Shown here in pieces: positions 1,385-40,310 of a stretch of 64,000 nt of DNA. The notes beneath the pieces are model-generated. The model was not told the DNA's origin and did not search any database. It worked only from the letters and a program-made list of their open reading frames with translations. Origin of the DNA: Ginglymostoma cirratum. Its lineage: Eukaryota. The DNA is taken from the NCBI GenBank assembly GCA_024137785.1, contig JAHRHZ010000062.1:36441424-36505423 (forward strand), written 5' to 3'. The position numbers were made by a program, and so were the translations under genes. Numbering within the stretch: position 1 is the stretch's first letter; each line of letters starts with the position of its first letter.

Positions 1385-1585
1385 AAGAACTGCAGATGCT
1401 GGAGAACTGAAACAAACAAAAACAGAAACTGGTGGAGAAACTCAGCAGGTCTGGCACCGTCAGAGTTAACATTTCAAGTCCAGTGACCCTTCTTCAGAAC
1501 AGTTCTCAAGGAGGGTCTCTGGACTTGAAACCTTAACTCTGCTTTCTCTTCACAGGTGCTGCCAGGCTTGCTGAGTTTTTCCTGA
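1385..1585. mobile_element. Palindromic short Penelope-derived element with two degenerate hammerhead motifs
   Basis: Inverted arms centred at 1500/1501 (gaac-a-gttc). The - arm reads gttCTGAAGAagggtcactggacttGAAAtgttaact. The same terminal module ends the PLE remnant at 12900-13578. Confidence 0.75.
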
Positions 1586-2735
1586 CATATTCAAGTCATA
1601 GGCCTTAATATCCATTCGACAACAGAAGGAAAAGGTGCTCACTTTCATGTTTAAGGCACTGGATGTCAAGGCGTTGAAATGCCACAGCATGGAGAAGTAG
1701 GATGCTTTGCACATTTGAAAGTAGACTGATACAGTGGAATTATTTTCACAAATTGGAATTAAATGGTGCTGCACAGGCTTTCTGGAGACATGAGATTTGA
1801 CATTGAAACAGAAACAGGAGCTGCCAACTCTTCACATTAAATGATTTTGTTTTAGTGCTGCAGGTGGGTCAAGAGGAGCTGTATCTACCAAGCCTCTCTT
1901 TCAGCCTTCCCTAGATGGGTCCTTCCCCAACAACCAATGGATCTTTGACCTCCTCCCTTCTCAACACAGCATTCCCAGTCATGGGCTCTCCGTCTCCACT
2001 TGCAGTCCTCTGTCACCCATTGTCATTTGATCAATTGGCACATGGGAGTTGGATCTACAAGTTATAAACGTGGCCCTGACATTGCGACCCAAAATGTCTC
2101 CATGTCCTGTGTCTGTTTTTGGCCCCATATTCACCGTTCTGAAAAATATTGTGGATTTCTGACTTAATTTTTGCATCAGTCCAGTACAAAATTGTATGTC
2201 TGCATTTCAGGTGTTTCCATTACAAACAGGCTTATATCTTGTAATTCCACTCTTGCAATGATTTTACCTCCACTGGTGAAAAAAGTTAATTATCTCCCGG
2301 CCAGTTTATATAGACAGTTTGTATTATAAATGAAGACTTAGGAACTTTGTGGGGAAGAAATAGGCACAAATACAATGTTTACTATCATAAAACGGATCTT
2401 CCCATGTTTTGTGCATGGAACATTAGGACACAGATTTTAAAATATAGTCATTCAAGATTTAGAACAAATATTCATTAATGTATATATTATACCCCAATAC
2501 ATTTGCAACAATCTTCAGCAAGAGGTTGCAAGTGGATGAGACATTTTGTTCTCCTCCCACCATGAGAGAATTCAATTTCAGCCAATTTAGTTTGGTCTGT
2601 ATAATATTAAGTAATTGCCAGGCTCACTAGCTGCAGAAAATGTTACAAAGCTTGACAGCATCTTACCTCTAGGGCTAAAGATCTTTGCTCCAGAACTAAC
2701 TCTATCTCTAGACAAACTGATCTCGAGAGAAAGCT

Positions 2736-2840
2736 CTTCTGAGGAAGGGTCACCAGATTCGAAATGTTAACTCTGATTTTTTCTTCACAGATGCTGCCAG
2801 ACCTGCTGAGCTTTTCCAGCAACTTCTGTTTTTATTCCAG
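2736..2840 (+). mobile_element. Short Penelope terminal module with degenerate hammerhead motif
   Basis: CTGAGGAagggtcaccagattcGAAAtgttaactctg...cacagatgctgccagacctgctgag; same family as 1385-1585. Confidence 0.75.
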
Positions 2841-2944
2841 TAAAATTGAACTCAGTGGAAATCAAGGGGTGGGGGGGGGGGGGCGGGGCCGGAAAACGCA
2901 CCTCTGCTAAAGCCAAGCTTAGCACAAAGAAAGATAGTGTCATA

Positions 2945-3700
2945 GCAGTACGAAATCAATTATCTTATGTCATTGCAGGTATTTGTCAGGGTAGTGACCC
3001 AGGCCTAATCATCTTCAATTTCTTTATCAACAATCTTCCCTCTATCTTAATGTTGGAATTGAAGATGTTCGCAGATAATACCATCAGGTTCAGTTCCATT
3101 CACAACTCCTCAGATAAAGAATGCCCCCGTCAACGTGACAACATTCAGATGCAAGTTGGTAAAATAGCAAATAAGAGACAACACAGTGTGGAACTGGAGG
3201 AACACAACAGGCCAGGCAGCAGTAGAGGAGCAGGAAAGTTGACCTTTCTTCTGAAATGAAGGGTCCGACCCAAAACGTCAACTTTCCTGCTCCTCTGATG
3301 CTGCCTGGCCTGCTGTGTTCCTCCAGCTCCACACTGTGTTCCTCCAGCTCCACACTGTGTTGTCTCTGACTCCAGCACTGGCAGTTCTTGCTATCTCAAA
3401 ATGGCAAATAACATATTTACTACCCAGGTATCAGACAATGACCACCTTCAACAAGGTTAAGTTCAATCACATCCTCTTGGCATTCAATTGTATTAACATT
3501 GCCAAATCTCATCCACATCTGGGGGTCACCATTGACTATGTATAACAATTACTATATAGTTATATAATGCTATTAAATACTTGTCTAAAATAGCAGGTTG
3601 GAGAAACTGCATATTCTACAGCAAATGACACACCCCTCGATTCCACAAGCCTTTCCACATCAACAAGGCACAAGTCAAGAGTGAAATGAAAATAAATGCC
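2945..3700 (+). mobile_element. Degenerate CR1/L2-group LINE RT fragment interrupted by a palindromic insertion
   Basis: ORF 2846..3259 'AGICQGSDPGLIIFNFFINNLPS...MFADNT' is RT domain 4-5 like. Same family as 30710-32545. Confidence 0.7.
3175..3397. mobile_element. Palindromic Penelope-derived insertion with 14-bp target-site duplication
   Basis: Inverted arms at about 3174-3243 and 3277-3367, with central ctgaaatgaagggtccgacccaaaacgtca. Flanks are aaaatagcaaataa (3161-3174) and aaaatggcaaataa (3398-3411). Confidence 0.75.
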
Positions 3701-3809
3701 TGATCTTATTAACTCATTCATTTGTCACTTTATTACAGCAAAAACCAAAGTGGTTATTTTATCATTTTCTGAAATAGAAGTCATTTTAGCACTTTTTACC
3801 CTTTTAGAA

Positions 3810-4152
3810 GGCCATGGTGGCTCAGTGGTCAGCCTTGCTGCCTCACAGCACCAGGGACCCAGGTTCAATTCCACCCTCAGGCAACTGTCTGTGTGGAGTT
3901 TGCATGTTCTCCCTGTGTTTGCATGGATTTCCACTGGGTTTCCCGGTTTCCTCCCACAGCCCAACGCTGTGCAAGTTAGATGCATTGGCGATGCTAAATT
4001 GCCCGTAGTGTTCAGGGATGTGTAGGTTAAATGTGTTAGCCATGGGAAATGTAGGGTTACAGGGAAAGGGTAGAGGGATGGGTGTGGGTGGGATACTCTT
4101 CGGAGGGTCATTGTTGGGCTGAATGGCCTGTTTCCACATTGTATGGATTCTA
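3810..4152 (+). mobile_element. HE1-type V-SINE (tRNA-derived)
   Basis: A box tggctcagtgg, B box ggttcaattcc, V-domain gtgtggagtttgcatgttctccc, CR1-like tail gcctgtttccacattgtatggattcta. Confidence 0.9.
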
Positions 4153-4256
4153 AAATGGTGTATAATTTAAACCATTTGCAGCAAGATAGCCCAAGACTCA
4201 ACTCAGTAGAAAACTTCCACATTTGATTCAGTAGTGTTTTGGTAAATCAATGAACG

Positions 4257-4646
4257 ATAGCTCAGGTCATAGCATTTCCTCTCTTGATACAGAATGTTCC
4301 AGTTTTAGTCACACTCCCAGAACCAGAGCACAAAAATAAAAGTTGATACTCCAGCGCAGTACTGATAGAGTACTGCGCTGTCAGACATGCTGCCTTCGGA
4401 CAAGACTTTAAACCAAAGCCCTATCTGCTCTGTCAGATAGAAGTAAATAACCCTTGGCATTATTTCAGAGAAGAGCAGGAGAGTTAAATATTTATCTGAT
4501 TGTATGGTCATTATTATATTGCTGTTTGTGGAAGTTGGCGGTGTACAAATCAGTTGCTACTTTATATACAGTACAATAGTGATTATGCTTCAAAAGGAAC
4601 TTCATTAACGGTAAAGTAATTTAAGCCATCTAGTGATCATGAAAGA
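4257..4646 (+). mobile_element. DeuSINE (SacSINE1/AmnSINE1-like), degenerate
   Basis: Contains ctccagcgcagtactga, ttaaaccaaagccctatctg, gaagagcagg and ggtcattattatattgctgtttgtgg, matching my recollection of the Deu domain and tail. Confidence 0.7.
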
Positions 4647-8290: not shown

Positions 8291-9756
8291 GCTTTCCCCG
8301 TTGATAGCTGTAGATATTTTTAATTAATCTGTTATGGCATGTGATGTCACACCTTTGGATCATTGAAACTTGAACACTGGCCTTCTGGTCCAGAGATAGG
8401 AATATTACCACTGCACCAAAGCCCCCTGACAGTGTCATATTACTGCTGTACATCTTGTTTTTTCTTGATGACTCACTGAAAATAGAATCATGCTTTTTTT
8501 AAGCAGTCAAATGTAACTACGTTTTCATGGATTTTATATTTTGGATCAATTGTGTAAATTCGCATTCTAGACTACTGCATGCCGAATTTGAGTGTCCCTC
8601 TGTATCTGTAAATCACATAGCAGGGGACAAAGGGTGGAAAGTTGTGTAGGCAGTGCAGCAGAGCCAGTAAAATTCCTCACATCCTCAACTGTGTGATGGT
8701 GGAATGGATATAAAAAGCCAGGACAGGGCTCTCAGTCAACACATGCCCTCTCTGATGGCCCTAAATCAGACACAGACTGTCTTTAAATGAGGGACGATCT
8801 CCCCCACCAACAAATGTCTGCATTCACATGAGTTTACTTGTCTTTCTTTTCACTTGGGAAGCTCCCTACTGAGTTAACGGGATCGGATGCGGTCCTGAAA
8901 TGACTATCAATTTCCCACTTAAGATATTCAATTGGCAGCAGAACAGAAAGGTTGTCCACAGGCTTTCCCACTGCAGACTGGAGTGAGGGTGAAGGAAAAA
9001 GTGTTGGTGAGGTCTCAATCCCCCATCCTCCCATTGGTTAAACTCCCACCACCAAACAACCCATGGAGTGGACAGAAGGTTCCACCCAATATGTGAAAAG
9101 GGAGTAAAATTGCTAGAGGTACGGCAGGTCATTCAGCATCTGTAGAAACATTGTAAGGGTGTGTTCAAGGGTGTGTTTTTTAGCCAAAGGTAGAAGCATT
9201 TGTTGTCTTTCAATTATAGTCCTGTCCTCAAAGCCAAAACAATGACAACATGACAATGCATATCAGTATCAGAAAGACTGGGAAAGGAGAAAAAGCACAA
9301 CTGATTGAATCACAGAAAAAGAAACGCAAGTTAAAGGAATCTGCTTAGCAGCAAAGATAAAATAAAAGTATGATATAACTGGGGAAACAGCCATTACAGG
9401 TCTAAAATAATAACTGAAATGATAAAAACAGATACTGGGCATATCACTTGTGTAAGGAATTTTTAAAAAATGTCAACAATCTCACTCACTTGGTAAAAAT
9501 GTAATCTGGCAAAGGATCTACACCTAGAATTTCAATCCACTTCGGTGCAGACAGGTTCACCTCAATTCACTATCACCTGTTTGAAAGGCAATGAGGACAG
9601 ATAAGGTTTAACCTCAGATCACAGTGCTGAGGAGACATCAAGAGGCCCTGAAGCAATTGCCTGGTTTACAGCGATGGGACACAGTTCCCAGGGACACGTG
9701 GCAGTAAGCTATAGGCATACAGCTTATTATTTCCCATCGGGACTCTCCTCAAGAGC

Positions 9757-9930
9757 AAACAGAAATTGCTGGAGAAGCTCAAGATAAACCCTTCTTCAGA
9801 ACTATTACTGGACCTGAAATGTTAACTCTGCTTTCTCTCCACAAATGCTGCCAGAACTGCTGAGTTTCTCAAGTAATTTCTGGTTTTTTCCCCCAGATTT
9901 CCAGCATCCCCCAGTTCTTTGTTTTATTTC
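9757..9930. mobile_element. Degenerate palindromic Penelope terminal module
   Basis: cccttcttcagaact followed by ctggacctgaaatgttaactctg..tgctgccagaactgctgag. Confidence 0.7.
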
Positions 9931-12899: not shown

Positions 12900-13578
12900 T
12901 CTGCTTATTTCTGGCTGGGTGACTACTTTGCACAACTTCACGTTCTGTCTGCAAAAATTATCCCAAGCTTCCAACTGCCTGTCAAGTCAACACACCACTG
13001 TGTTCCCACACCAACATTTCTGTCACAGACCTGCCGCAGTGTTCCAGTGAGCCTCAGCACAAGCTCAAAGAATAGCATCTGTTTTTTCCACTATAGTTTC
13101 TAGGTTCAACATCGAGTTCAATAACTTTGGAGACTGATTCCATCCTTCTATGTTTTTTTTACCCACCTGGCACCCAGTCCTGTTATGACATGGGTTGCTT
13201 TTAGGACAGTCACCCATTCTCATGTACTCCTAGTTCTGTCATCACACTATATGGGTTGTATTGAGCACAGTGCCCCACTTTTTCACTCTTAGCTCTTATT
13301 CAACCTTTCTCCTGGCCTGTTGGCCAATGATCACCTTGTTTACATACCCTTTCATATCTCTTTCTCTCTGGGCTTTGGCTCCACCCATTTGCTCACTTCT
13401 CCTCTTTGCCATCAACACCGTTCTTCCCAACTTGCGTTCAGGATTAAATACCACATTTTCCTAGCTACTAACAGTTCCAAAGAAGAGGCCACTGGTTTCA
13501 AACATTAACTCTGTTTTCTTCCCACAATTGCTGCCAAGGCCTGCTTAGCTTCACCAGCAGTTTCCATTTTTGTTTCTG
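12900..13578 (+). mobile_element. Penelope-like element 3' remnant (GIY-YIG C-terminal region plus terminal module)
   Basis: Degenerate 'LGDYFAQL..' and 'QCSSEPQHKLKE.HLFF', collinear with 47870-48367. It ends in the same terminal module as the short elements. Confidence 0.7.
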
Positions 13579-13764
13579 CTTATTTATCAGCCTATCTTTA
13601 AAGTTATTTCTCACTCTCCTTCTCTCTAAACATGCACGTTTCTAGCCTCTACCTTTACATACTGTAACCCTCTCTGACCTAGAGAAAATGCCCCTTCTTG
13701 CAACTGGAGGCCAAAAATGTAAGATAGTCACTAAGAAATTCGGCAAGTAATTTAGAAAATAATA

Positions 13765-13877
13765 AAAACAACACACTGTGGACACTGGAGACCTGAAATT
13801 AAAACAGAATACTCAGCATCTATGGAGAGAGAAACAGAGTTAACATTTCATGTCAAACAAATTCAATTCTTCAGAAT
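13765..13877 (-). mobile_element. Short Penelope terminal module, degenerate
   Basis: cagcatctatggagagagaaacagagttaacatttc..ttcttcagaa. Confidence 0.65.
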
Positions 13878-15049
13878 GAAATTTAGAAGAAACTCCTTCA
13901 CACAAAAAAAAGTGGTAAGAATGTGAAATTTATTAGCATGGCAGATTGCTGAAGCAAGTAGAGATGAAATTAAAGAAAATGAGACAAAAATATGAGTGAA
14001 AATAATGAATAGATAATCATTTTGGTACAATAAATGACAAAATAGGAGAGGAGGCTCAAGTGAAGCATTAACACTGACTAACAGCCTCTTTCCATGCCAT
14101 ACACTCCATGTAACATTTTTCCCTTCATAAATTTCAGGGCACTTTAAAACTCACACATGCACTAATATGGCTTCCATTTTTTGAGAAAATAATCATCAAA
14201 ATATAGTATTGTTTCTTTCTTGTTCAGCTGTTGCAGAATTCCAATATTTGATGTACAATTTGCAAAGTCATCACAACTTGCCTTTTGCAATAAATAATGC
14301 ATTAAATTTACAATAAGCCTTTTGTTAATAACATGCATTGTCAAAAATGAAGGTTATAAATATTTGAAGTATTCTTTTGTCACTGCAGTCTCAGTAGTTA
14401 CGTTACACTAATCGCACAGGTTTCATGACGTTTATTACTCTGGTGTATTTTACAGTTGGTGATAATTGGCATGGTATTTACTGTTAGTCTTTCGAAAAGC
14501 AGCCTATCATTTATCAATGGTTGTAATCACGCGAGGAGGGAAGAATTAAGGCTCATGAATCAGATTATTTTGGTGTTGCTTTGTTGATCTTAAACAGGAC
14601 TTGGGACCTACTGAGTGTGGAACCTTTAAGCATCAGAGCTTGAGTGGGGCCTAATAAATGGCTGTATCAGTGTCAGAAATGCAGGAGGCATTTGATCTTA
14701 GAGTGAATGGCCAAGGAAGTATGTCATGCCTAATTTTTAATGAGCAATTGAGTGGGCCCTGAGCACATGGTGGAGTGGACTGAATTGAACCTGAAACTTT
14801 GGTCTGGATCTTTGAGGAAAGAAGAAGGATACAGGTTCTACATTCCTGACTTGGCTCCTCCATTACTGGGCATGCAGCTCCTGGTCCCCAGGAAGTTTCT
14901 TGGAATCAGGCCTACTTCTCAAACACTCCTATTTTATAGGCATTCAGAGGTGAAAATAACTTTAAAAACATCTTATCCATACACCTCCAAACATCACAAA
15001 GGGCTTTCATACCCTCCATGACAACTCCATGAATGGCCCCCTCTTAGCC

Positions 15050-15363
15050 AAGGTCTTTTTCCCAGGGTAGGGGAGTCCAAAACTAGACAGCATAGGTTTA
15101 AAGTGAGAGGGGGAGAATTAAAAGGGATTTAAGGGGCAACTTTTTCACATAGAGGGTGGTGCATGTATGTAATGAGCTGCCAGAGGAAGTGGTGGAGACT
15201 AGTACAATTACAGCATTTAAAAGGTTTCTGGATGGTTACAAAGCATTTAGAAGGATATGGGAAAAAGCTGGCAAATAGGACTAGATTAATTTTAGGATAT
15301 CTAGTTGGCATGGACAATCTGGACTGAAGGATCTGTTTCTGTGCTGTACATCTCTATGACTCC
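15050..15363 (+). mobile_element. CR1 LINE 3' end
   Basis: ggggcaactttttcacatagagggtggt..gagctgccagaggaagtggtgga; tail ctctatgactc. Confidence 0.8.
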
Positions 15364-16094
15364 AAGAACCATTTCCACATGCTGTGGTACAATAGGGTTC
15401 ATTTTCTTTTCTATACAGAGTATATATGAGATGAATGGGCATGGAAGTGCCCTATGTTGGCTTATGGAGCTGTGAGACCCCAGATGGGTTGGATGGAGGG
15501 TGATTGGTTACATGGAGGGTACAGTACCTAGTGCGGAGAGGTGGAAAGGCCCATGTTTCGATGGAAGGGATAAGAGGCTGTCGGAGGTGATTGAAGGCAG
15601 AAGTTGGCATGGATTGGAGGTGGGGGGAATGGCTTGAAAGGACATAAGGGATAGAGAGTGTAATATTGAACAAAATGACTAATACAAAAGTCCCAGAGAA
15701 TGTAAGACCTTTTTAACCAGCTCCCCAAGCAGCTCAAGTGGCTGTTTCCAAACTGTTTCCAGGGCAGCAGACCTGACTCTGACATATATCCATACAAACA
15801 CATCGTCCTCAAATCCCCACACCATCCTGCCCTCTGGATCCCAGAAGGAAAACCATACCTTTGGAGACATTTTCTTCTGAGGCTCACGTATCAAGCCCGG
15901 AGATGACATGACCTGTGCTACCCACAGCCAATGAACTCTGCTTCTCTCTTCACAAATGCTGTTAGACCTCCTGAGTATTTGCAGCATTTTCTGTTTTATA
16001 TCAAATTTTCAACATCAGCTGTATTTTGCTGCTAAAATTTCAGATCTTCCAACTATCCACTTTCTGCATAGTTTGAATGCATTCTTTATATCAT

Positions 16095-19015
16095 GCCATA
16101 AGGGAGGATTTAAACTAGTTTTTAAGGGAGATGGGAACCTGATGGCAATTCAAAATGGGAGGCAGAAATTCAGTGAATGGTTCCAAACGACTGAGGAATC
16201 AGTGATTACTACATGTACAAAACATGATTTTTGCAGTGTGAGCAACATGTAAATACAAGGTGAATACCAAATGAAGCTGATGATCTCATGGTACAGATGG
16301 ACAGATGGCAGCAAGATATCATTGCTATAATAGAAACTTGGCTTAAAGGCGGGGGGGGGAGCAGCCTGATATCCCTAAATATAAAGTTTTCAGGCAAGGT
16401 AGGGAAGTAGCATTATTGGTTACAGAATCAACAACAGCTGTCAGGAAGGATAATGTACTGAATTAAGTATTAAATTTAAAAAGTCAAAAGAACTGCAGAT
16501 GCTGTAAATCAGAAACAAAACCAGAAATTGCTGGAAAAGCTCAACAGGTCCAGCAGCATCTGTGGAGAGAAATCAGAGGTAACGTTTTGGGTCGAGTCAT
16601 CCTTCCTCAGAACTATTAAATAAGGCCTTACGGGTTGACCTCAAATGAAAAAGAGGAGCAGACACACTACTCGACATGTAATATAGACTCTCTAATGGTG
16701 GGAGAGAGTTAGAGGAGCAGATATATAGGTAATGCTCTGAGCAGAAAAAAACAACATGACAATAATAAATCGGGACTTCAATTACTCACTTGTCAACTGG
16801 AATACAAACAATGTGAAAGGCACAGAGGGCACATGATTCTTGAACTGCATCAAGAGAAGCCCTACAAGATATAATTTCAGGTTTAGTGTTCGGAAATGGG
16901 TAGGTGGATGAAGTAGTATTGGGTGACAATTTTGGAATTAACGATTAAAATACAGTTTGATTTAGCGTCATTATGAAAAATGACAAAGATTGGACATGAC
17001 TACAAGTTCCAACCTGGGGAAGGCAAATATTACAAAACTGAGATATGATTTAGCAGAAGTGGACTGGACATAGCTACTTGAAGGAAAGTCAATGGCATGT
17101 TATTGAGAGGCATGCAAAAACAAGATTCCATGGCAGAACAGCAGCATGTCCCCACAAAGATAAACAGTGGTACTGCCAAATCTAGGATCCCCTGGCTATC
17201 CAGAAGCATATAGCCCAGGATAAAACAGAGAAATAGAGAATGGTAACCTCAAAAAAGTAACATTTCAGGAATCTTAGAGGAGTATAGAATGAATAGGGAT
17301 AAAGTGAAAAGGGACTTCGGCATAGAAAAGGGAAAACACCTTTTAAACAAGAATGCTTCCATTCTATCCCAGCTCACTATTTTGAGCACCTCAATTTAGT
17401 TACCATCTCCTCTGTTCTAGATCAGTGCTTCAAGAACAAGGAGGATAAATAAGGGAAGGGTCAGGATTATTAAAAATACACATGGTAAAATGTATATTGG
17501 ATGCAGAAGGATGCAGGTTTCTTATTGAGAACTTTGCTTCTGTCTTCACAAAGGAAGAGGAACATGCAGGCATTCTGAATAAAGAAGAAAAATATGAAAT
17601 ATTCAATAAAATAAGCATAATAAGAAGAGAAATATTGGAGGAATTGACTTCCTCAAAAGTGGATGAATCACCAGAACCTGAAGAGTTTTATCTGAAGCCA
17701 TTGATAATGCAGTCAATACTGAGAGGTTGGATTAACTATTACTTAGAAAGGAATGGCTTAACTACATATCGTCAGCAAGGTTTTGTTAAGGGAATGTGGT
17801 GTCTTACTAAGTTAATTGAATTATTTGAAGAAGTAACAAGGAGGATTGATCAAAGTAGTGCAGCAGATGTTAGTGACATGGATTTTAGCAAGACATTTAA
17901 CAAGGTCAAACGTGGCTAACGATCAAAGAATTAAAGCCGATTAGATACATTGCAAATTATTTTGTGCCAATGTGGCAAAATCTTTCCAAAATTGGCTCAG
18001 TTACTGGAAATAAAGGGTCGATGGATGTGAAAGGAAAGTGGTTTCCAGAGGTGTTCCACAGGGGTCTGTGTTGGGTTCCTTGTTCATTGTGGTATTTGTT
18101 AATGATTTAAGCTTAAACGTTGGAGGTGTAATTGGGAGATTTACAGATGACACAAAAAATGACCAACGTTGACAGTGAAGACATGGCTGTTGACTGCAGG
18201 ATGATATTGATTTGGCTGAGGGAGCAGAAAAGTGATTAATGGAATGTTACGCATTGAGGAGAGGGTGGATGGGTGGAAACAAAACAAGGGAATACCTCAT
18301 TAACAGGAGGATATTGAGAAAATTAAATGAAGTGAGAGACCTTGGGAGTGCACATCCTCCACCAACTTCCAAAGGTTTTAGGACAGGTACATAAGGTAAT
18401 AAAGAAGGTGTCTAGGAGACTTTCCTTCATTGGGCTTTGCATCAAATACAAAAGCTGTGATGTAATACTGAAACTGTACGTGACACTGGTTGGGCCCCAG
18501 CTGGAATTCTGTGTACTGCTCAGGCCGCCACATTACATGAAAAATGTAATTGCTCTCAAGAGGCAGAGCAGAAATTTACGAGAATGTTACCAGGGCTTGA
18601 AAATTGCAGCCAAAAGGAAAGATTGGGTAAATATGTTTCCCTGAGAACAGAGGAGGTGGTGACTAAATTGAGGGTACACAAAATAATGACCTTGGATAGA
18701 GTGGAGAGGGATGACCTGTTTCCCTAGTAGAGAATTCAATTACAGATTTTACACGATTGCTGGAAGGCTTAGAAGAAGCATGAGGAAAAGCCTTTTCACT
18801 CAGAGGGTGGTGTGTGTCTGGAATTCACCTTGGGGTTTGAGGTGAATGGAAAACCTCAACTCATTTAAAGGAAATTTGGAACAACACCTGAACTGCTGTA
18901 ACCTGTAAGTCTATGTACCAGGTGCTGGAAAGTCAGATTAGAATGGGCAGATAGTTTAATTCAGCTGGCATAGACCTAAAGGGCCAAATGACCTTTCCCT
19001 CGGCTGTATACAATT
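16095..19015 (+). mobile_element. Long, highly degenerate CR1 LINE (endonuclease, RT and 3' UTR)
   Basis: 'QQGFVKGMWCLTKLIELFEEVT..DMDFSKTFNKV', ggtgttccacaggggtctgtgttggg (GVPQGSVLG) and 'LYVTLVGPQLEFCV'; many stops and frameshifts. Confidence 0.85.
16476..16614 (-). mobile_element. Short Penelope terminal module inserted in CR1, 8-bp flanking repeat
   Basis: The - strand reads agttCTGAGGAaggatgactcgacccaAAACGTta; tattaaat occurs at 16468-16475 and 16614-16621. Confidence 0.75.
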
Positions 19016-19569
19016 CTTAGAATATCATGTCTGATTTGAAATAAGCACGAAGAGATCAGAATAGGTCTATTGCTTTCTGTTGGAAATTTTGAGTGTTCCC
19101 AAGGACAAAGATATTCATTTTGCTTTGGTATTGGAAGAGTATAGTAGAGATTGGAGTAACTGGACAGGAGAGAGAAGTTTGCAATTTTTATTGGTAATTT
19201 GTGTCACATCTGTGAACAGAGTTTATGCTTTAGGTCAATGACCTTTTGCCATAATTGACAAATTTATTGTGCATCCATTTAATTTGCATAAGAAGGGGGC
19301 AGATGTCCACATTAAAAATAAATCAATACAGAGAGTCAGGAAACAATTAGAATTCTGCTATTTCATTCCCAGAATTTGCTAAACCCACAAATTAAATAAA
19401 GAAATAAAATAACTGGATGGAACTTGAACTAGCAGTTGAGAACTTAGGAGTTTGGTGGGGTTAAACATATGGAAGTTGACAGGTTGTAGATAAATTGGTT
19501 CTGACCCATCAATTTCGTCAGCACATTAAGCTGTGGGTGAACAACCCCCTCAGGAAAGATGCTTAAATA

Positions 19570-20110: not shown

Positions 20111-20436
20111 GGGGTGACATGGTGGCTCAGTGGTTAGCAAGACAGCCTCACAGTGCCAGGGATCAGCCTCGATTCAAGCCTTGGGTGACTGTATGTGTGG
20201 AGTTTGCACTTCTCCCTGTGTCTATGTGGGTTTCCTCCGGGAGTTCTGGTTTCCTCCCACAGTCCAAAGATGTGCAGGTTAGGTGGATCGGCCATGCTAA
20301 ATTGCCCATAGTGTCCAGGGATGTGCAGGCGAGGTGGGATAGCCATGGGAGAAACTATGGCATGCTCTTCAGAGGGCTGGTGCAGATTGGATGGGCTAAA
20401 TGGCCTGTTTCTGCACTGTATGGATTCTATGATTCT
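20111..20436 (+). mobile_element. HE1-type V-SINE
   Basis: ggtggctcagtggttagc head, V-domain, tail ggattctatgattct. Confidence 0.9.
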
Positions 20437-21227: not shown

Positions 21228-23310
21228 CACTGAGAGGGACAGGAGCAGACAATATGGGAAAGTATTTAATTGGGGGAGGGGGAATTATCATGCTATTAGG
21301 CAAGAACTGCGGCGCATAAATTGGGAACAGATGTTCTCAGGGAAATGCACGACAGAAATGTGGAGGTTGTTTAGGGAGCACTTGCTATGAGTTCTGGATA
21401 GGTTTGTCCCACTGAGGCAAGGAACGGATGGTAAGGTGAAGGAACCTTGGATGACAAGACATGTGGAACATCTAGTCAAGAAGAAGAAGGAAGCTTACTT
21501 AAGGTTGAGGAAGCAAGGATCGGATAGGGCTCTAGAGAACTACAAGGTAGCCAGGAAGGAACTGAAGAATGGACTAAGAAGAGCTAGAAGGGGGTATGAA
21601 AAAGCCTTTGTGGGTAGGATTAAGGAAAACCCCAAGGCGCCTTGGGGTTTTCCTTAATCCTACACACGAAGGCTTTTTCATTTCTAGCACGTCCTCCTTC
21701 CTAACATCAACCTATTCCAGCAAAGTATTGAAGCAAAGTATTCATTAAAGACTTCCCCAACCTCCTCTGATTCCACACACAAATTCCCTCCACTATCCCT
21801 GATTGGCCCTATCCTGACTCTGGCCATCCTCTTGTTCCTCAAGAAGGAGTCAGAGGAGGTTGGGGAGGTCCTTAATGAATACTTTGCTTCAATACTTTGC
21901 TGGAATAGGTTGATGTTAGGAAGGAGGGCATGCTAGAAATGAAAAAGCCTTCATTATTCACCAGTATTTTGCTTCAGTATTCACCAGTGAGAGGGACCTT
22001 GACGTTTGTGAGGACAGCATGAAACAGGCTGATATGCTGGAATAGGTTGATGTTAGGAAGGAGGACGTGCTAGAAATTTTAAAAAACATGAGGATAGATA
22101 AGTCCCCTGGGCCAGACAGGATATACCCAAGGTTACTACGGAAAGCGAGGGAAGAGATTACTGCGCCTTTGGTGATGATCTTTGTGTCCTCACTGTCCAC
22201 TGGAGTAGTACCAATAATTGGAGGGTGGCAAATGTTCAAGAAAGGGAATAGGGATAATCCTAGGAATTACACACCAGTCAGTCTTACTTCTGTGGTGGGC
22301 AAATTATTGGAGAGGATTCTGAGAGATAGTATTTATGATTATTTGGAAAATCATAGTTTGATTATAAATGACTTGGATGAGGAAGTGGAAGGGTAGGTTA
22401 GTAAGTTTGCTGATGACATGAAGGTTGGTGGAGTTGTGCATAGTGTGGAGGGCTACTGTAGGTTGCAACGGGACATTGACAGGATGCAGAGCTGGGCAAA
22501 GAAGTGGCAGATGGAATTCAAACTGGAAAAGTGTGAAGTGATTCATTTTGGAAGGTCAAATTTGAATGCAGAATACAGGGTTAATGGCAGGATTCTTGGC
22601 AATGTGGAGGAACCGAGGGACCTTGGGGTTCATGTCCATAGATCCCTCAAAGTTGCTACCCAAGTTGAAAGGGTTATAAAGAAGGCATATGATGTGTTGG
22701 CATTTCTTGGCAGGGGAATTGAGTTTAAGAGCCGTGAGGTTATGCTGCAGCTCTATAAAACCCTGGTTAGACCAAACTTGGAATATTGTGTTCAGTTCCG
22801 GTTGCCTCATTATAGGAAGGAAGTGGAAGCTTTAGAGAGGGTGCAGAGGAGATTTACCAGTATGCTACCTGGACTGGAGACTAGGTCTTATGAGGAAAGT
22901 TTGAGGGAGCTAGGGCTTTTCTCATTGGAGTGAAGAAGGATGAGAGGTGACTTGATAGAGGTGTACAGGATGATGAGAGGCATAGATAGAATGGATAGCC
23001 AGAGACTTTTTCCCAGGGCAGAAATGACTATTACAAGGGGGCATATTTTTAAGGTTATTGGAGGAAGTTATAGGGGAGATGTCAGAGGTGGGTTCTTTAC
23101 ACAGAGTGTGCTGGGTGTGTGGAATGTGCTGCCGGCGGTGGTACTGGAGTCAGATACATTAGGGACCTTTAAGTGACTCTTGGATAGACACACGGATGGT
23201 AGTAAAATAAACGGTATGCACGGTAGTTTGATCTTAGAGTAGGATAATAGGTCGGCACAACATCGTGGGCTGAAGAGCCTGTACTGTGCTGTATTGTTCT
23301 ATGTTCTATG
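21228..23310 (+). mobile_element. 5'-truncated HER1/CR1 LINE, internally rearranged and deleted
   Basis: 'DKSPGPDRIYPRLL', 'NYTPVSLTSVVGKLLE', KFADD and 'RGDLIEVY'; tail (GTTCTAT)n; palindromes at 21597-21952. Confidence 0.92.
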
Positions 23311-24225: not shown

Positions 24226-24240
24226 CACACACACACACAC
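24226..24240. repeat. (CA)n microsatellite
   Basis: Seen directly. Confidence 0.8.
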
Positions 24241-28560: not shown

Positions 28561-28629
28561 TGTTTTGCCTAGTCAGCAGCGTTATTAACCATATGTAAAA
28601 TTGAGTTGGATAGGTTCCTTACAGAATAC

Positions 28630-30709: not shown

Positions 30710-32545
30710 TTTTTATTTATTCATTTGTGGGATGTGGTGATCGCTGGCTGGCCAGCATTTATTTCCCTTCCCTAGTTCCCCTTGAGAAGGTGGTGGTGAG
30801 CTGCCTCTTGAACCGCTACAGTCCACCTGCTGTGGGTTAACCTACAATTCCATGAGGGAGGGAATTCCAGGATTTTGACTCAGCAACAGATAAGGAGCGG
30901 TGATATATTTTCAAGTGAGGATAATGCGTAGTTTGTCGGAGAACTTGCAGGTGGTGGTGTTCCCATGTGTCTGCTGCCATTGTCCTTCTAGATGGGAGTA
31001 TTTGTGGGTTTGGAGGCTGCTGTTTGAAGATCCTTGGTGAATTTCTGCAGTGCACTTTGTAGACAGTATCGCTGCTACTGAGTGTTAGTGGTAGAGGGAA
31101 TGGATGGTGTAGATGTAGTGCCAATCAAGTGGGCTGCTTTGTCCTGGACAGTGTCAAGCTTCTTGAGTGTTGTTGGGGCTGCACTCAACCATGCCAATGG
31201 GGATTAATCCATCCGCTTCTGAGTTGTGCCTCATAGATGGTGGACAGGCTTTGGGGAGTCAGGAGATGAGTTACTCACTGCAGTATTCCTAGCCTCTGAC
31301 CTACTCTTGTAGCCACTGTGTTTATGTGGTGAGTCCAGTTGGCTTTCTGGCCGATGATAACCCTGAGGATGTTGAAAGAGGGGGGATTCAGTGACAGTAA
31401 CACCATTGAATGTCAAGGGGCAGTGGTTAGATTGTCTGCTATTCGTGATGGTCATAGCCTGGCATTTGGCATGAACATTATTTGCCACATGTCAGTCCAA
31501 GCCTGGATATTGTTCAGATCTTGTTGCATTTGAACATAGATTGCTTCAGTATCTACGGAGTCATGAATGATGCTGAACATTGTGCAATCATCGGCAAACA
31601 TCCCCACTTCTGACCTTATGATGGAGGGAAGATCATTGATGAAGCAGCTGAAGGTGGTTGGGCTGAGGACATTACCCTCAGGAACTCCTGCAGAGATATC
31701 CTGGAACTGAGACGACTGACCTCTAACAACCTCGACTATTTTCCTTTGTGTCACAACTATGTGTACGACTCCAACCAGCGGAGAGTTTGCCCCAGATACC
31801 AATTAATCCCAGTTTTCCTTGGGCTCCTTGATGTCACATTTGGTTGAAGGCAGCATTGATATCAAGAGCTGCCACTCTCACCTCACCTCTGGAATTCAGC
31901 TTTTTTATCCATGTTTGAACCAAGGCTGCAATGAGATCAAGAACTGAGTGGCCCTGGCAGAACTCAAATGAATAGGTTATTGCTGAGCAGGTGCTGCTTG
32001 ATAGCACCGTAGATGACACCTTCCATCACTTTACTGATGACCGAGAGCAGATGGATGGGGCAGTAATTGACTGCATTGGATTTGTCCTGCTTTTAGTGTA
32101 CAGGACAGACTTGGACGATTTTCCACATTGTCAGGTAGATGCCAGTGTTGTGACTGTACTGGAACAGCTTGTCTCGGGGAGTGGCAAGTTCTGGAGCACA
32201 AGTCTTCAGTACTATTGCCAGAATATTGTCAGAGCCCATAGCCTTTGCTGTATCCAGTGTCTCCAACTACACATTGGTATCACATGGAGTGAATTAAATT
32301 GGCTGAAAATTGGCATCTTGATGCAGGGGACCACTGGAGGAGGCCGAGATGGATCAACCACTAGGTACTTCTGGCTGAAAATTGCTACAAATGCTTTAGC
32401 CGTATCTTTTGCATTGATATGTTGGGCTCATCCATCATTGAGGATGGGGATATTTGTGGATCCTTCTCTTCTAGTGAGTTGTTTAATTGCCCGTCACCAT
32501 TCGTGACTGGATGTGGCAGGACTGTAGAGTTTAGATCTGATCTGT
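30710..32545 (-). mobile_element. Degenerate CR1/L2-group LINE (RT plus 3' UTR)
   Basis: 'VAALDINAAFNQM' and 'AGVPEGNVLSPTTFSCFINDLP..GMFADDCTMF'; 3' end shared with 49595-49800 and the SINE at 53348. Confidence 0.85.
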
Positions 32546-32845
32546 TAATTCTTAATTTCTGCACAGTCAATTAGACTTGTATAGGGGATAATTCAAAAGG
32601 CTAGCAACATTTGATATTATGTGAGAAGAGAGCTGACTGGTTTGCAAGTGGACTCTGATTAGAGGCATGCCCATTGAAGAATGCACCAACTATGTGTTGA
32701 CTGACCGTTAACTACCAAGATTTGTTCAAAGTTGTACCAGGTATTTTGGCACTGACTGTTCAGAGTATTGTTCTGAGAAATGAATCAGGGAAAACGTTTA
32801 CCTATTTTAAATAGAAAGAGGCACACATATATACATGAGAGATAA

Positions 32846-32963
32846 AAGGTACTGCAGATGCTGGAGAATCCAAGATAACAAGCATGGGGCTGGATGAACA
32901 CAGCAGGTCAAGCAGCATCATAGGAGCAGGAAAACTTGACGTTTCGGGCCCGAAACGGGCCCG
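32846..32963 (-). mobile_element. Truncated Penelope-derived module ending in a small palindrome
   Basis: Same family as 3175-3397; ends cgtttcgggcccgaaacg followed by ggcccga. Confidence 0.7.
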
Positions 32964-33559
32964 ATATCTACACATATATACATGTTCTTTCTTTGTACAA
33001 AAAACAGGATTTTGTAAATTAATTGATGTTGTGCAATACTCAAAATCTGTACCATCAAATGACAATAACAATATTCTTTTAAAATTTCACACATGATGTC
33101 AATGACTAGTAAATTAAATATTATATGAGAAGTATTTGTGTACTTATTCCCCGTCAAATAAGTAAGGTGATAAGTAAAGAAACTTTCCCAATACATTGTA
33201 GTACTTAATTAAAAAAAGTCACAATTATTGGAACTTGTTCAAATGAACAATTTGCTAAATAAACTGAAGTGAAACATATTCTTCTATTTAATAAGGTAGA
33301 GAATTAGCAGAATTAGCATTAAAAAGCTAATATTTTAAACAATATGCTCACACCTGGAAAATTTAGGGATGAATTCTCCAAGGAGACTTAATGTCCTAGC
33401 AGCCCTGGGACTGAAAATGGAAGGCACACCCCCTCTAGCAGGTGGCATGAATGTGGGATGGCATTTTGACACACTTCGTCTGAAATGCCTCCAACATCTA
33501 TTGCATCTCCCCCAAAAATCTTCCTCTGTCAATTCCTCAAAAATTTCCAGTAAGTTAAT

Positions 33560-36150
33560 AGTAAGACACGACCTTTCCTAATAAAACCTCACTGACTATT
33601 CCCAAATAACCTATGCTTTTATGATAGTTAAGCCTACCTCGCAGTCTTGATTCTAGTAATTTACCCTGCACTAAAGTCAGACTGACTGCCAATAATTATT
33701 TGTTCTATCCATTGCACCATTTTTGAATGATGGTACAACATTAACAGACCACTAGATGTCTGGTACTTTGCTTGCATCTAGTGAAGATTGGAAAATGATC
33801 CACAGAGCATCTGCTGTTTCCTCCCTGGCTTCTTCTTACAGCCCAGGATTTATCTGCCTTCAAGGAGTTCAGTTCCTCCAATCATTAGCCCCTCCCATGA
33901 GTTCCTCCCATCTCATTATGCTTATTTAATCCAATACTTCACACTCCCTCTCTTTAACTAGAATATCTGCCTCTCCATTAAGAAGTCGGAAACAAAATGC
34001 AGATTAAGAACACTGCCTTCATCTACTGTTTCCACACACAGGTTACTATGTGAATCTCTGATAGGTCCTATACTTCCCTCAGTCATCCTCTTGCTCTTGG
34101 CATTCTGACAAAACATCTTTGAATTTTCCTTAAATTAACCAGCTAATGTTTTGTTTTGTATCCTCTCTTTGCTTTTTTGACTTCATTTTACCCCTGTAAT
34201 TTCTTTACCCCTTTAAGTTTTTTAAAGTATTACTTTATATGAGATTGTCGTTAACTCTATTTTACTGCTTTCTCCCACCATGAATCCTCTGCATAATCGA
34301 TTCCAGATTTGGCAATACCACTCTCTTTCTTTGTGGGAGCATGCCTGCACTGTACCTGCAGAATCTCACTTAAATGCTTCCACTGGTTAGCACTGACTTT
34401 CATTCATGTATTTGTAACCAGTTCAATCTTTGCCAATCATCTCTCAGCTTTGCAATATTTGCATTCTCCCAATTTAGAACTTTTATGCCTGTTTTATGTT
34501 TCTGTGATGATGCTGAATCAAACTGTTTTTTGATTGCTCTCTCCAAAATGACCAACTACTGCTTCTTCATCAACCTGCCCAGTTTCATTTCTTCAGACTA
34601 AATCTAGAATTGCACTTTCTGCCATTAGGCTTGTGGTGTACTGACTGAAAAAATTATCTTGAATTAAATTCAAGAATTATGTGCATTCTGTGCCTCTCAG
34701 ACTGTTTGTACACCAGTTAATATTTGGATAGTTGAAATCCTGAACTATTACTGCCATTTTTTCAATTGTATCAGAAATTTGTTGACACATTCGCTCTTCC
34801 AACTCTCTCCCAAGATTTATGGGCCTATACCATACATCTGTCAGCTTAGCTGCCCCATTTTTGTTCCTGAGCTCAACCCATATGGTCTCATTTGATGTTT
34901 CTTTTTCAGTTCATCATCCCTCCTCATAGTTGTTGTTGATTCTGTGACCAATAATACTATGCCCTCACCTTGGATATCTCTTTTCTGCCTGAAAAATCCA
35001 TATTCAGTGATGTTGAGCTATATCCTTGCCTATCTTTAAGCTGCTGTGAGTCTATCTGTGCTCTCAGCTCATTGGCTGTATTTGCTAAACTCCTTGTGTT
35101 TACACACTTACCCTTTAATAAGCATATTTCCTATTCTTATTTTTTTCAACCACCACCTCCCTCTATTTTGCCAGGTGAAGTGCTAAATTTTTGCCTCTTG
35201 CCCCCTGTTCTGAATTTACCATCAGATTCCCAAACCCTCTGTCAAACTACAGTAAACCTAGCTCAACAGCACTATGAAATCTCCTTGCAAGAATACTTAT
35301 CCTGCTCCTGTTCAGGTGTCGAACATTGGCTTGTACAGCTCGCAGGTCCCACTTTCCCCAGAATGCATTGCAATACCCCAGAAATCTGATGCTTGCCCTC
35401 TTCCACTCGCCATGTGTTCTGTCACTCAAATCTTCTACTTCAATACTTACTAGCTCATGGGACCAGAAATACTCGCAAGTTACAGCTTTTGAGGTCCTGC
35501 CTTTCAATTTCCTATCCAGGTCCCTGAAATCTGCTTTAAGGACCTCATCCCCATTCATATCTAAGTCATTTGTGCCAAAGTGGACCATGATCTTTGGCTG
35601 GTCACCCTCCTCCAGAAGACTATCATGAAGCTGCTCTGTAACATCCTTTATCCTGGCACCAGGGAAACAACATCCCATCCTGGGAGTTATGTCAATGCTT
35701 GTTTGATCCCCAACCATAGAATCAACTATCATTATTGTTCTTCTTTCTTCCCTCCCTGTAGAAATGAATCACACACTATGTCATTCATCTGTCTCCAGCA
35801 ACGTTCTCCTGAGGAATTATCACGCTCACCAGTATCCAAAATGGAATATTGATTTGCAAGCAAATTAGACTCAAGGAACTCTTGCAATACTTGCATTGTA
35901 TTCGTACCCTGGCAGTCATCCATTCCCTCTATGCATGTATGCTTCTAACCTATGGTGTGGCCATCTCTCTCAATGTATTTTCCATGTAATCATGTGCCTT
36001 GCAGATGCATGGCAGTGACTTCAGCTGAAGCTCAAGTTCCCAAACCCAGAGCTCAAGCTTGTGTCGCTGGTTATGCTTCTTGCAGATGCGTTTGTGTGGC
36101 ACATAATTTGTATCCATCACTTCACACAAATTAATCTGCCAACCCATAAC
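33560..36150 (-). mobile_element. CR1 LINE 5' half, including ORF1 esterase (SGNH-like), degenerate
   Basis: ORF 35247..35732 'DSMV..CCFPGARIKDV..MVHFGTNDL' matches the CR1 ORF1 esterase; a Cys-containing N-terminal ORF lies at 35950..36147. Confidence 0.8.
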
Positions 36151-36469
36151 TATTTATTACCATTAAAATAGCACAATGACTTACAAGTGTTCACCGATCA
36201 GCTTCTTTCCCTGCAGTGAATGAAGTAAGCGCCAGTTACAGCATAGTATAAACAGGACAAGAAGAGATGTGCATCCCCCTCACCTCAGCCCCATTCCCTC
36301 TAATACAGTTGACTTTCATTCTGTACTCTGTCCAAACAATACAGCACTCAATGCAGACAAGGCAGGACTATGGATCTTCTGAAAAGAACTGACTTATGGT
36401 TTAAAACATTGGGTTAAGCCAGCCACTAATTAACTAACTACAGTTTTCTTCTGAACTTATATACCCCCA

Positions 36470-37465
36470 AGGGTGTTCCAAAGGGATCAGTAGCAGGTTC
36501 AATTTTGTTTGTAATTTATATAAAATATTTGGGGAGAATTTAGGACTCATGGTTAGTAAGTTTGTGGATGACACCAAAATTGATGGTATAGTTGATGGTG
36601 AAGAAGGTTATCTAAAATTACAAAGAGATCTTGATCGATTGGGTCAATAGGCTGAGGAGTGGCAGATGGAGTTTAATTTGGATAAATGCAAAGTATTGCA
36701 TTTTGGCAAAAACAAACAAGGACAGAACTTATACATTTAATGGTAGGGCCCTAAGTAACGTTGTAGAACAGAGAGACCTAGGGTTTCAGATATATAATTC
36801 TCTTTAAGTTTGTGTCACTTGTAGAGAGGGTGGTTAAGATGGCATTTAGCTGGTTGCCTTCATTGCTCAGACCTTAGAGTACAGGAGTTGGGTTGTCATG
36901 TTGAGGTTTTACAGGACAATGGTCAATCCTCTTCTGAGGTACTGTGAGCAGTTTTGGTCACCATGCTATTAAATTGGAGAGGGTTCAGAAAAGATTTACC
37001 AGGATGTTACCAGGAATGGAAGGTTTGAGTTGTAAGGATGGACTGGATAGGTTGAAATCTTTTTCCACTGGAGCTTGGAAGGTCGAGGGATGATTTTATA
37101 GAGATTTATAAAATCATGAGAGGCATAGTTAAGATGAATAACAAGAGTCTTTTCTCTGGGATAGGGAAGATCAAAGCTAGAGAGCATATTTTTAAAGTGA
37201 GAGGAGAAAGATTTATAAAGGTCATGAGGGCTTCTTTTTTCACACAGAAAATGGTTCCTATGTGGAATGAACTTCCAGAGGAAGTGATGGATGCAGGTAC
37301 AGTTACAACATTTAAAAGACATTTGGATAAGTACATGAATACGAAAGGTTTGGAGGGATATAGGACCAGCGCAGGCAAATAGGATTAGTTTGGTTTGGAA
37401 ACATGATTGGCATGAACTAGTTGGATGAACGGGTCTGTTTTGATGCTGCATGACTTTATGACCCT
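36470..37465 (+). mobile_element. CR1 LINE 3' part (RT to tail)
   Basis: ggtgttccaaagggatcagta, aagtttgtggatgacaccaaa (KFVDDTK) and 'FFTQKMVPMWNELP'. Confidence 0.88.
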
Positions 37466-39599
37466 AATAAATCTTAAGTTGTATTAATTTAAAAAGTAAT
37501 GGTTAGTAAATTGCAAAGAAAAAGCTACTCTTTAGAACCAAATTACCTAAAGACTCTCGTACTCACAAGCTTGCAATACTGAGCTTTCTTACTACCGGCA
37601 AGATGTCAGAAAGTGGCACTTAGTGTCTCGGTTGGTGAATGAGCTGCCAGGATACTCACAACTGACAATATGCCTGAGAGCAGGAAGACATTGGTCCCTC
37701 CCTGACCCCATGTTGCCAAATCTCCCACTTGCTAGCAGATGGCCAAGAGCCAAGAAAATTCAGCTTATAATCTTTTGCAGCATTCGCCTTCTCAGGTTAC
37801 CTTTAGTTTTTATCTTCTGATTACACGTTCCCGGCCTGCTGTTGCCTTTTTATTGGCAGAGTTCATTGTTAAAACTAAAAGCCTTTTGAAAAGGATTTCA
37901 TAAGGAAGGAAATTAAAATGCACCTGGATATTTTTTGGGTTCATTGAACACTAATATTCTATTTTCTTCGACCATGACAATCTTAATATGTTATTAAAAT
38001 TAATTGACAAAGAATTGCTGGAAATGTATAGCAGATCTGTTCACATCTTTGAAGGGAGAATAGGTTAACAGGTGTAACACGAGGGAAAAAGAGGCAACAC
38101 AAAGCCTAGGCCTTGAATTATTATATAAAACAAGTAACTGAATTTTACACATTGACTTTAAATATACTAGCAAAACAGTGTTTTTTACATTATATGCATC
38201 TCCTGCCATAAATATAAGCTTTAGGTAAAACTTTAGGAAATGCTGCCTTAAACATTTGTTTGATGGAAATTATACTGAAATTTGAATCCATCTGAATTGA
38301 TTCTAATGTTAAATAAACAACATTTGTTCTGTTATTGGCTTAGTTGATAGGAAACCAAAACTACTTTATAACATACATAGAATTTATCAGGCAACATGAA
38401 ACTACAATCCATTTTACCAAAAAGTTGAAGGAGCATGGTATTATATGCAATGATGAATAACCGATTGGTTTGGAAGTCTACTTTATGGTATCAACCACAA
38501 TGTGTTAGACATTGTTGTAAGAGAAAGTTTTACACTGTCCTATGCTTTATCAGGTTATCAATTGCAATATAATCCACAAATAGGTTGCAACATTCCAAGA
38601 CTTTTATCTTATTAGGATGATGTTCATGCTGAGAATAGAACATTTAAACATTAAACATACTTTTGAAAATGAAACTTGCAACAGTCATGTTATAATAAAT
38701 GTGGTTGATATTAATTGATATTAATCAGCTAGAAATACAAGACAGCCTTGTATTAATGAAATTAACACTCCTGTCAGTTGTGAGGTAATATGACAGATGT
38801 AAAAAGAATGGGAAATGAAGAAAGAAATCTCTGCAGCACTGGAGAAAATATAATGCGGGAAATGACTGTATAACTAAGTATGTGGACTCTGCAATACAGG
38901 TGTCAGTCTATAACAGAAATAACTTGCCTCCCCTTTCCCCCAAACCCCATGATCACCGCTCTCCCAATAAGCCTTTTCCTACTTCAGTTTCTTTTATATT
39001 CTTGTATAGGATGTTGGTTTTACTTTGAAAACTAACATTTACTATCTATCCTTATGATGTCCCTGGAGAACAACAAACCAAGAGAACCAAATTTATCCGA
39101 GCAAGAAAATCAACACACAAAATTGCACTTCAGATAACTTTTACTCTAACGATTGAACCAAAATCAACATGAATCAACGGGCAAGCTTTGGTCAATATAG
39201 ATTATAAATTACACATTAAATAGCAGATACAAGAAAGAGAGATCTCATGGAATTACGTTGCAATCCACCGAGCATATAATTTCAGCCACAACATTCTTCA
39301 AAACTATGAATTTTCTCAAGTAGAATTCTAGCTCCTTTTCTTTGAATATTTAGTTACTGGTCCTCATCCAACAGCAGCTCCCAAAGAACCCAAATCCCAC
39401 AAACACAGTCTTAACCACAATGGCTTACTTTGCCAGTGTGTTCTCAGCTCAGTTCACAACAGTCTTAATAGTAGAGAACAACCAGAAAATCCTTATCCTC
39501 CTTAACAAATTTGTGTACTTTTTGGCCAGTGCTAATTAATTAGTTTCTTTAAAATAACTAAAGCACCGGTGGACCTTCTAGCCTTTCAGGAGGGTGGTG

Positions 39600-40310
39600 G
39601 TATCTTGGCCTTTATTGTAAGAGGATTTGAGTACAGCAGTAGCAACATCTTGCTTCAATTGTGTAAAACTTCAATTAAATCACACCTGGAATTACTGTGT
39701 GTAGCTTTGGTCCCCTTACATTATAGGAAGGCTATCGTTGCCTGAGAGCAAGTATGGTGAGGAAGTACTAGACTGAAAAGAAGAAATTCTAGAGATCACA
39801 GCTGGTCAGGCAGCATCCATGGAGAGAGAGCAAGCTCACGTTTTTAGTCTAGTTGACTCTTCATCAGAGCTGATGTGAAGTGTGAAGTACTAGCCTTGTG
39901 CCCAGGACGGCAGGATAGTCACATCAAGAGGCATTGTGGAAACTGGTCTGTGTTCTCTGGAGTTTTGAAAAATGAGAGGTGATCTGAATGAAACCCGCAA
40001 AATACTTAATGGTTAGACAGGATAAATGCAGATAAAATGCTTCTCCTGTTTTTTGAAATCTAGAACCAGGAGACACAATATCAAATTAAGAGGCAAACCA
40101 CTTAGGATTGAGATGTAGAGAAAGATTTTACTTAGAGTCATGAATCTTTGGAATTCTGTTCCTCGGACATCTGTGAAATCTTGGTCATTAAGAATGTGCG
40201 AGGTATAGATTGACAGATTTTTAAGTACCACAGACAATAAAGAGACGTGGGAAACAGTGTGGGAAAACAGCATTGAAGTAAATGATCAACCTACCTCTGC
40301 TCCTGTGTTC
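39600..40310 (+). mobile_element. Degenerate CR1 3' fragment
   Basis: aatgagaggtgatctgaatgaaacc (MRGDL.E) and gaatctttggaattct. Confidence 0.7.
39772..39883 (-). mobile_element. 112-bp Penelope-derived insertion with 10-bp target-site duplication
   Basis: gaagtactag at 39762-39771 and 39884-39893; the - strand reads agctCTGATGAagagtcaactagactaaAAACGTgagct. Confidence 0.8.

Follow-up and report, generated by a model that had tools for sequence, protein, structure and literature searches.

The window analyzed here is a 64,000-nucleotide (nt) stretch of Ginglymostoma cirratum DNA (contig JAHRHZ010000062.1). It is repeat-rich animal DNA of 33 to 43% GC, its only long open reading frames (ORFs) are decayed pieces of reverse transcriptase (RT), and the closest named protein relatives of one of its repeats, the 53971 family, come from carpet sharks. 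Dispersed along the window are short insertions with a hammerhead ribozyme motif, which we relate below to Penelope-like elements (PLEs). An earlier note on this DNA had placed eight such modules at 1385, 2736, 3175, 9757, 13765, 16476, 32846, and 39772; all eight are present at these positions and can be aligned with one another. In a profile search with nhmmer they gave E values of 1e-11 to 1e-36, which are partly so by construction because the profile was built from these same eight modules; the best score in the reversed window, used as the null, was E 0.36. The search added a module at 15934 and three weak old copies (E 0.0025 to 0.01). Together with the loci at 13470, 47870, and 53971, this gave a tally of 12 short or long hammerhead-type insertions plus the three old fragments.

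Read in the sense of the hammerhead, a module consists of the 5' strand of stem I, CUGAnGA, one extra base, stem II, GAAA-C-G-U-H, and the 3' strand of stem I, followed by about 70 nt and then by an optional 30-nt extension, the tail. The modules are 70 to 220 bases long and mostly decayed, with 70 to 130 nt per arm in most copies. There are nine short copies versus three long ones in the window, and the short copies fall into at least three subfamilies with 50 to 60% identity between subfamilies. At five of the 12 loci (1385, 3175, 9757, 32846, and 53971) we found inverted or fold-back pairs and not single modules. The features are given below; positions such as -3 or +27 are counted relative to the ribozyme core (C3), and TSD stands for target-site duplication.

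1385 to 1500, minus strand: tailed module whose minimal hammerhead is intact (C3 at 1497), with the 5' end at -3 and 15 nt deleted internally.
1501 to 1592, plus strand: head-to-head inverted partner of the preceding module, lacking the tail and with a mutated core; 5' end at -4; TSD not found.
2737 to 2838, plus strand: solo module whose 3' end lacks the tail and whose 5' end is at -2; TSD not found.
3175 to 3397: inverted pair of the second subfamily; the tailless minus arm (3175 to 3243) ends near the cut site, and the plus arm has the tail and a 21-bp internal duplication; 14-bp TSD (1 mismatch) at 3161 and 3398.
9754 to 9928: inverted pair; minus arm tailless and internally deleted, 5' end at about -8; plus arm tailed, its start at +11; 8-bp TSD at 9746 and 9929.
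12915 to 13578, plus strand: long 5'-truncated remnant with decayed coding body, 3' untranslated region (UTR), and tailless module (13473 to 13578).
13758 to 13879, minus strand: tailed solo module with an internal deletion, its 5' end at -2 to -5; 9-bp TSD at 13749 and 13880.
15934 to 16028, plus strand: additional module with tail, absent from the earlier note, starting at about the predicted cut site, TSD not found.
16476 to 16613, minus strand: tailed solo module carrying G12A, its 5' end at -3; 8-bp TSD at 16468 and 16614.
32838 to 32969, minus strand: tailed module of the second subfamily that is cut off inside stem II and has a brief fold-back at a palindrome; 15-bp TSD at 32823 and 32970.
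39772 to 39883, minus strand: module of the AGCU/AGCU subfamily without the tail, its core mutated (G12A; cut triplet GUG) and its 5' end at -16; 10-bp TSD at 39762 and 39884.
47870 to 48362, minus strand: long remnant homologous to 12915 to 13578, hammerhead core deleted; module part (47870 to 47937) tailless.
53933 to 54589: two PLE 3' ends in inverted orientation, with 92% identity between the arms, the C-terminus of an endonuclease, and a UGCA/UGCA hammerhead (C3 at 54008, minus, and 54473, plus); only the plus arm bears a tail, of about 35 nt; the 7-bp duplication is weak.
9107 to 9145, minus strand: old partial copy (nhmmer E 0.009).
19207 to 19244, minus strand: old partial copy (nhmmer E 0.01).
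38008 to 38065, minus strand: old partial copy (nhmmer E 0.0025).

The modules are real insertions. TSDs of 8 to 15 bp, with the lengths listed above, adjoin six of the eight originally described loci (3175, 9757, 13765, 16476, 32846, and 39772), where the earlier note had counted three (14, 8, and 10 bp). The probability of an exact match of 8 bp or more was 0.031 per locus under the null. The same search found no TSD at 1385, 2736, or 15934. At 16476 the copy interrupts an older repeat whose paralog, at 34182 to 34972, runs continuously across that site; because the paralog is uninterrupted, and so represents the empty site, the copy at 16476 is an insertion.

The 3' ends fell into two classes about 30 nt apart, one at about +94 to +101 from C3 (tailless) and one at +123 to +127 (tailed). 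Of the inverted pairs, four have two readable arms, and each of these bears the tail on one arm only; the junctions at 1385, 9757, and 32846 lie on short palindromes or microhomologies. The 7-base word that opens the module also closes the tail. Circular permutation via this shared word was considered and rejected, since the bases before stem I match the 3' UTR of the parent PLE and not the tail. A full-length copy in partial tandem with direct pseudo-long terminal repeats (pLTRs) was looked for in the window, and none was found.

The arms at 53971 match the C-termini of shark RT proteins at 65 to 81% identity (tblastn E 1e-18; 18 of 18 candidates passed), and one of these proteins (P0018) carries both RVT_1 and GIY-YIG above the cut-off. 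The parent ORF of this family thus encodes RT and GIY-YIG, as in an endonuclease-positive PLE. The predicted shark PLE protein reads into the hammerhead core and stops in stem II (54440 to 54490; P0006 and P0012), so in these shark relatives of the 53971 family the ribozyme and the end of the ORF overlap. Upstream of the module, the 13470 and 47870 remnants have a common body (66% over 340 nt) that is itself repeated in the sequencing runs described below. By motif, we read this common body, as seen at 12915 to 13578, as a decayed GIY-YIG endonuclease C-terminus, and the bodies of this main family are probably those of PLEs. The earlier note had the same module ending PLE remnants at 13470 to 13578 and at 47870; it does end both, but the core has been lost from the second, and neither body has a protein match. 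The two long remnants cease to be homologous at one and the same point (12915 and 48362), which may be due to chance, to older upstream decay, or to a shared deleted derivative of about 600 nt.

Even without the endonuclease reading of these bodies, the structural signature of PLEs is strong. Known PLE marks include an inverted 5'-truncated partner and a tail of 30 to 40 bp at one end (PMC8557442), and a 31-bp tail, TSDs of 8 to 10 bp, palindromic junctions, solo pLTRs, and pLTRs that include the first codons of the ORF (PMC3846280). A conserved ATG frame 3' of the hammerhead core agrees with that position of the first codons. Compared with the insertion units of endonuclease-positive PLEs (PMC3846280, PMC8557442, and PMC2377424), the modules are alike in their TSDs (here 8 to 15 bp), palindromic head-to-head inverted partners, tail on one arm, first ORF codons in the pLTR, solo copies of pLTR size, and parent with RT and, at the C-terminus, GIY-YIG (here the 53971 family). 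They differ in that most copies here have only 70 to 130 nt per arm and start at the edge of the ribozyme.

The ribozyme is a minimal type I hammerhead and would cleave as a dimer or with the help of protein. In the window, only 1497 (minus) and 54008 (minus) passed the strict hammerhead descriptor; Markov controls gave no motif at one or fewer core mismatches in 12 of 12 runs. The strands of stem I are AGUU/AACU, AGCU/AGCU, and UGCA/UGCA, and each is best paired with the partner from its own family, so the claim that stem I varies between families while remaining paired is borne out, on three families only; AGCU is a single copy and differs from AGUU by one pair. Of the CTGA(N)GA...GAAACGT pattern that all eight modules had been said to share in whole or part, the 32846 module lacks CUGAnGA. 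The statement that most cores are mutated, often at CpG, fits what we found: in the 8-base box around GAAA (CGAAACGT; 12 arms), all 16 changes are at the four CpG positions, and 13 of the 16 are C>T or G>A. Because all changes in the box are on CpG positions, the decay of the cores is passive. Rfam gave no hammerhead at E ≤ 1; its seven matches were hairpin-type chance hits, for example mir-761 on the 3175 inverted pair (35.9 bits versus a cut-off of 82). A long-range pairing of the ATG box with the tail, complete at 9 of 9 positions in 16476, was not counted, as similar scores occur elsewhere in U-rich copies.

The 47870 remnant lacks about 110 nt relative to 13470, a loss that joins the 3' UTR directly to the downstream module at 47938 to 47940. 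Contigs of two DNA sequencing runs from different studies were compared with positions 47780 to 48530 of the window at 80% likeness, and 12,966 and 17,455 contigs matched. Of these, 664 and 992 have loose ends at 47937 that read as an intact core, in which stem II pairs perfectly over 5 bp and the loop of stem III is absent. The majority sequence across the runs keeps the hammerhead whole from the core's second base on, with stem II and the cut site included, so that, as far as this comparison could be carried, the consensus retains the core. The module is highly abundant. Contig depth at its peak was 12 to 14 times that of the highest bin of the body, a ratio that sums several subfamilies and is not a copy number. 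Two further runs, guessed to be RNA, gave 452 and 429 matching contigs, which have no bearing on expression. The high-copy, severely truncated, ribozyme-carrying PLE derivatives proposed in the earlier note thus agree with the TSDs, the common body of the remnants, the contig abundance, and the protein link of the 53971 family.

Hammerheads of this kind have been described in metazoan PLEs, where the minimal form is thought to work as a dimer (Cervera and de la Peña 2014, PMC4209133). The modules resemble them in having no helix III loop, palindromic 15.2-16.2 positions, an extra base after A9, a short stem I, many covarying families, and mostly single dispersed motifs, with opposite-strand pairs 100 to 700 bp apart; helix II is 7 to 8 bp in Schistosoma versus 5 bp in the main family here, and the abstract, results, and discussion of that paper name no sharks.

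The 5' ends, with the longest arm taken for each insertion, are at -2, -3, -4, -5, -7, -8, -16, +14, +27, and about -240, -530, and -560; the three old fragments were excluded, their ends being unreadable. Nine of the 12 insertions begin within -16 to +27 of the core, seven of them at -2 to -16, and none at -17 to -230. A model of exponential truncation was rejected (bootstrap P of about 0.001; 0 to 0.003 over four detection limits). The bases before stem I match the 3' UTR of the parent PLE, and the copies have no common leader ahead of the core.

We propose, with a probability of about 0.8, that the modules are very short retrotransposition products of several endonuclease-positive PLEs and not those of a separate retrozyme. 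If the anole PLE is taken as a guide, the PLE protein would nick AT-rich DNA, and reverse transcription would start internally at either of two sites, about 100 or 125 to 130 nt downstream of the core; use of two sites would give rise to the tailless and tailed 3' ends. The template would be uncleaved RNA, and the core upstream of the cut site would therefore be kept in the copy. A head-to-head inverted second copy would often be added at short palindromes, and after insertion the cores would decay at CpG sites. As for the other end, the cDNA may run off the 5' end of the RNA at the front edge of stem I because the same module would stand at both the 5' and the 3' ends of the PLE transcript; we give this step by itself somewhat less than an even chance, and the same holds for the prediction that a fixed RNA 5' end at the edge of stem I is the cause of the short length. 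PLE transcripts have been reported to start within the pLTR (PMC2377424), for which reason we prefer run-off from the 5'-proximal priming site. More tentative still is the specific suggestion that transcription of shark PLEs begins exactly where stem I has its front edge and that internal priming yields one fixed, ribozyme-sized run-off cDNA per transcript.

A known system close to this scheme is PAc, the Poseidon PLE of Anolis carolinensis (Frangieh 2024, PMC11167929), for which two internal priming sites explain the tail in vitro and uncleaved RNA is the main template. Likenesses to PAc are two fixed 3' ends a tail apart, 3' ends about 110 nt downstream of the ribozyme, and, here by inference, copies of uncleaved RNA and AT-rich targets. 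The ORF of PAc starts at stem II, whereas the conserved ATG here is about 50 nt after the start of the core, and priming in PAc is in an AC-rich loop, whereas the end of the main family here is U-rich.

Several observations weigh against this proposal. The 5' ends were read by hand (n = 12) and their clustering was tested post hoc; two of the copies have no TSD, and therefore their 5' ends rest on loss of similarity. A power-law model of lengths was not clearly rejected (P of 0.001, 0.046, 0.13, and 0.10 by detection limit). Because contig depth is not a copy number and sums subfamilies, it does not separate discrete from random ends. RNAalifold gave no pairs and no consensus structure for the 12-row alignment, and single copies folded no better than their shuffles (all nine z values between -1.05 and 1.72), so folding energy gives no support. 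Protein searches with short, frameshifted pieces of the 13470 and 47870 bodies found no match and did not confirm their endonuclease reading.

The power-law result bears on the strongest rival explanation, ordinary random 5' truncation of PLEs with heavy-tailed lengths and no special RNA end, under which the pile-up at the ribozyme would be in part ascertainment and in part polymerase stalling and fold-back at palindromes. It takes the same view of PLE identity as our proposal and differs only on the cause of shortness. At three of the four limits its P values were 0.046 to 0.13, the junctions at 1385, 9757, and 32846 do lie on palindromes or microhomologies, PLE insertions are known to be heavily 5' truncated (PMC8557442), and single minimal hammerheads across genomes have already been ascribed to truncated PLEs (PMC4209133). 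The gap free of ends from -17 to -230 speaks against it, as does the position of the cluster. RT pausing is expected at the 3' side of an RNA fold; 7 of the 12 ends are on the 5' side (-2 to -16), which fits an RNA end better than a stall. The randomly distributed ends that the earlier note named as a refutation are thus not plainly seen, as the ends cluster at the ribozyme, although the power law is not clearly rejected. On balance we regard random truncation as plausible but doubtful as the full account.

Unlikely, in our judgment, are one or more discrete, SINE-like (short interspersed nuclear element) masters of the hammerhead module with transcription of their own, mobilized in trans by PLE proteins. 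The excess of short over long copies in the window would suit such masters, as would, weakly, the summed contig depth, far higher on the module than on the body; pLTR sequence suffices for mobilization in trans (PMC3846280), and non-autonomous PLEs are known (PMC8557442). However, at least three subfamilies have short copies, so that shortness looks like a feature of how PLEs transpose and not like the mark of a single master, and the main subfamily has long relatives. The 5' ends also differ from copy to copy, scattering over -16 to +27 across three subfamilies (n = 12), and the 5'-most bases match the 3' UTR of the parent in place of a leader. Of the two options in the earlier note, severe truncation of PLEs stands, and a discrete non-autonomous family has not emerged, given these subfamilies and scattered ends.

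Very improbable is the remaining idea, implied by the label retrozyme-like, that the modules are monomers of a non-LTR retrozyme, whose tandem units, with a ribozyme in each, are expressed as circles in metazoa (Cervera 2020, PMC7229834) and would self-cleave, circularize, and be reverse transcribed and reinserted: retrozymes, derived from pLTRs and reported in one chondrichthyan genome (Li et al., bioRxiv 10.64898/2026.07.22.740005), do share a type I hammerhead, a short non-coding unit, descent from pLTRs, long TSDs, and dispersal as monomers with the modules, whose tail also ends in their own first seven bases, but the window has no tandem array of the unit (15 of 15 arrays are unrelated or sub-unit) and no permuted unit, the partners are inverted and not direct and therefore form no same-sense dimer, only 15934 and one 3175 arm begin near the cut site while most copies start 2 to 16 nt before the core and so keep the core upstream of that site instead of spanning one cut site to the next, the sequence ahead of stem I matches the PLE 3' UTR, and the ribozyme is the minimal PLE type and not the canonical one. 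On the features compared in the window, the modules have ancestry and parts in common with retrozymes but do not qualify as such, their tail and inversions being those of PLEs.

The sequence before stem I ends in CAG at -3 (13452 to 13474, plus; 39868 to 39883, minus), and at 13470 a branch-point-like word stands directly before the AG at -3. The main family has a pyrimidine tract and CAG before the downstream ATG; the 3175/32846 family does not. In Drosophila virilis an intron ends at helix I (PMC4209133). As pure speculation, a splice or lariat stop could be an alternative cause of the 5' hotspot.

The window holds other repeats. One dispersed family of 300 to 500 bp (66 to 84% identity) is found at 3813 to 4155, 20111 to 20350, 55910 to 56263, and 61492 to 61850, and a second, with the same ranges of length and identity, at 15049 to 15369, 36967 to 37470, and 46802 to 47290. 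Decayed RT fragments matching RVT_1 at 22397 to 22933, 31452 to 31802, and 50524 to 50856 are likely LINE (long interspersed nuclear element) remnants. Exact motif scans of viral and metagenome contigs gave no matches in either. A literature search of partial coverage, with repeat databases outside it, gave nothing on hammerhead modules of shark PLEs, which may already be catalogued as families, and nothing on a 5'-end hotspot at stem I.

Minimal hammerheads in truncated PLE ends are already known, and the addition here is a host group and not a new system. The residual value is in the clustering of the 5' ends, through which the role of the PLE hammerhead and the start of the template RNA could become testable by counting. 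If the suggestion of a transcript start at the edge of stem I is true, uncleaved ribozyme RNA is the normal template, and the genome has been filled with self-generated, SINE-like hammerhead modules whose ends map the start of the PLE RNA; such short copies, numbering in the thousands and with ends set by TSDs, would preserve a record in nature both of the hammerhead's role and of where the template RNA starts.

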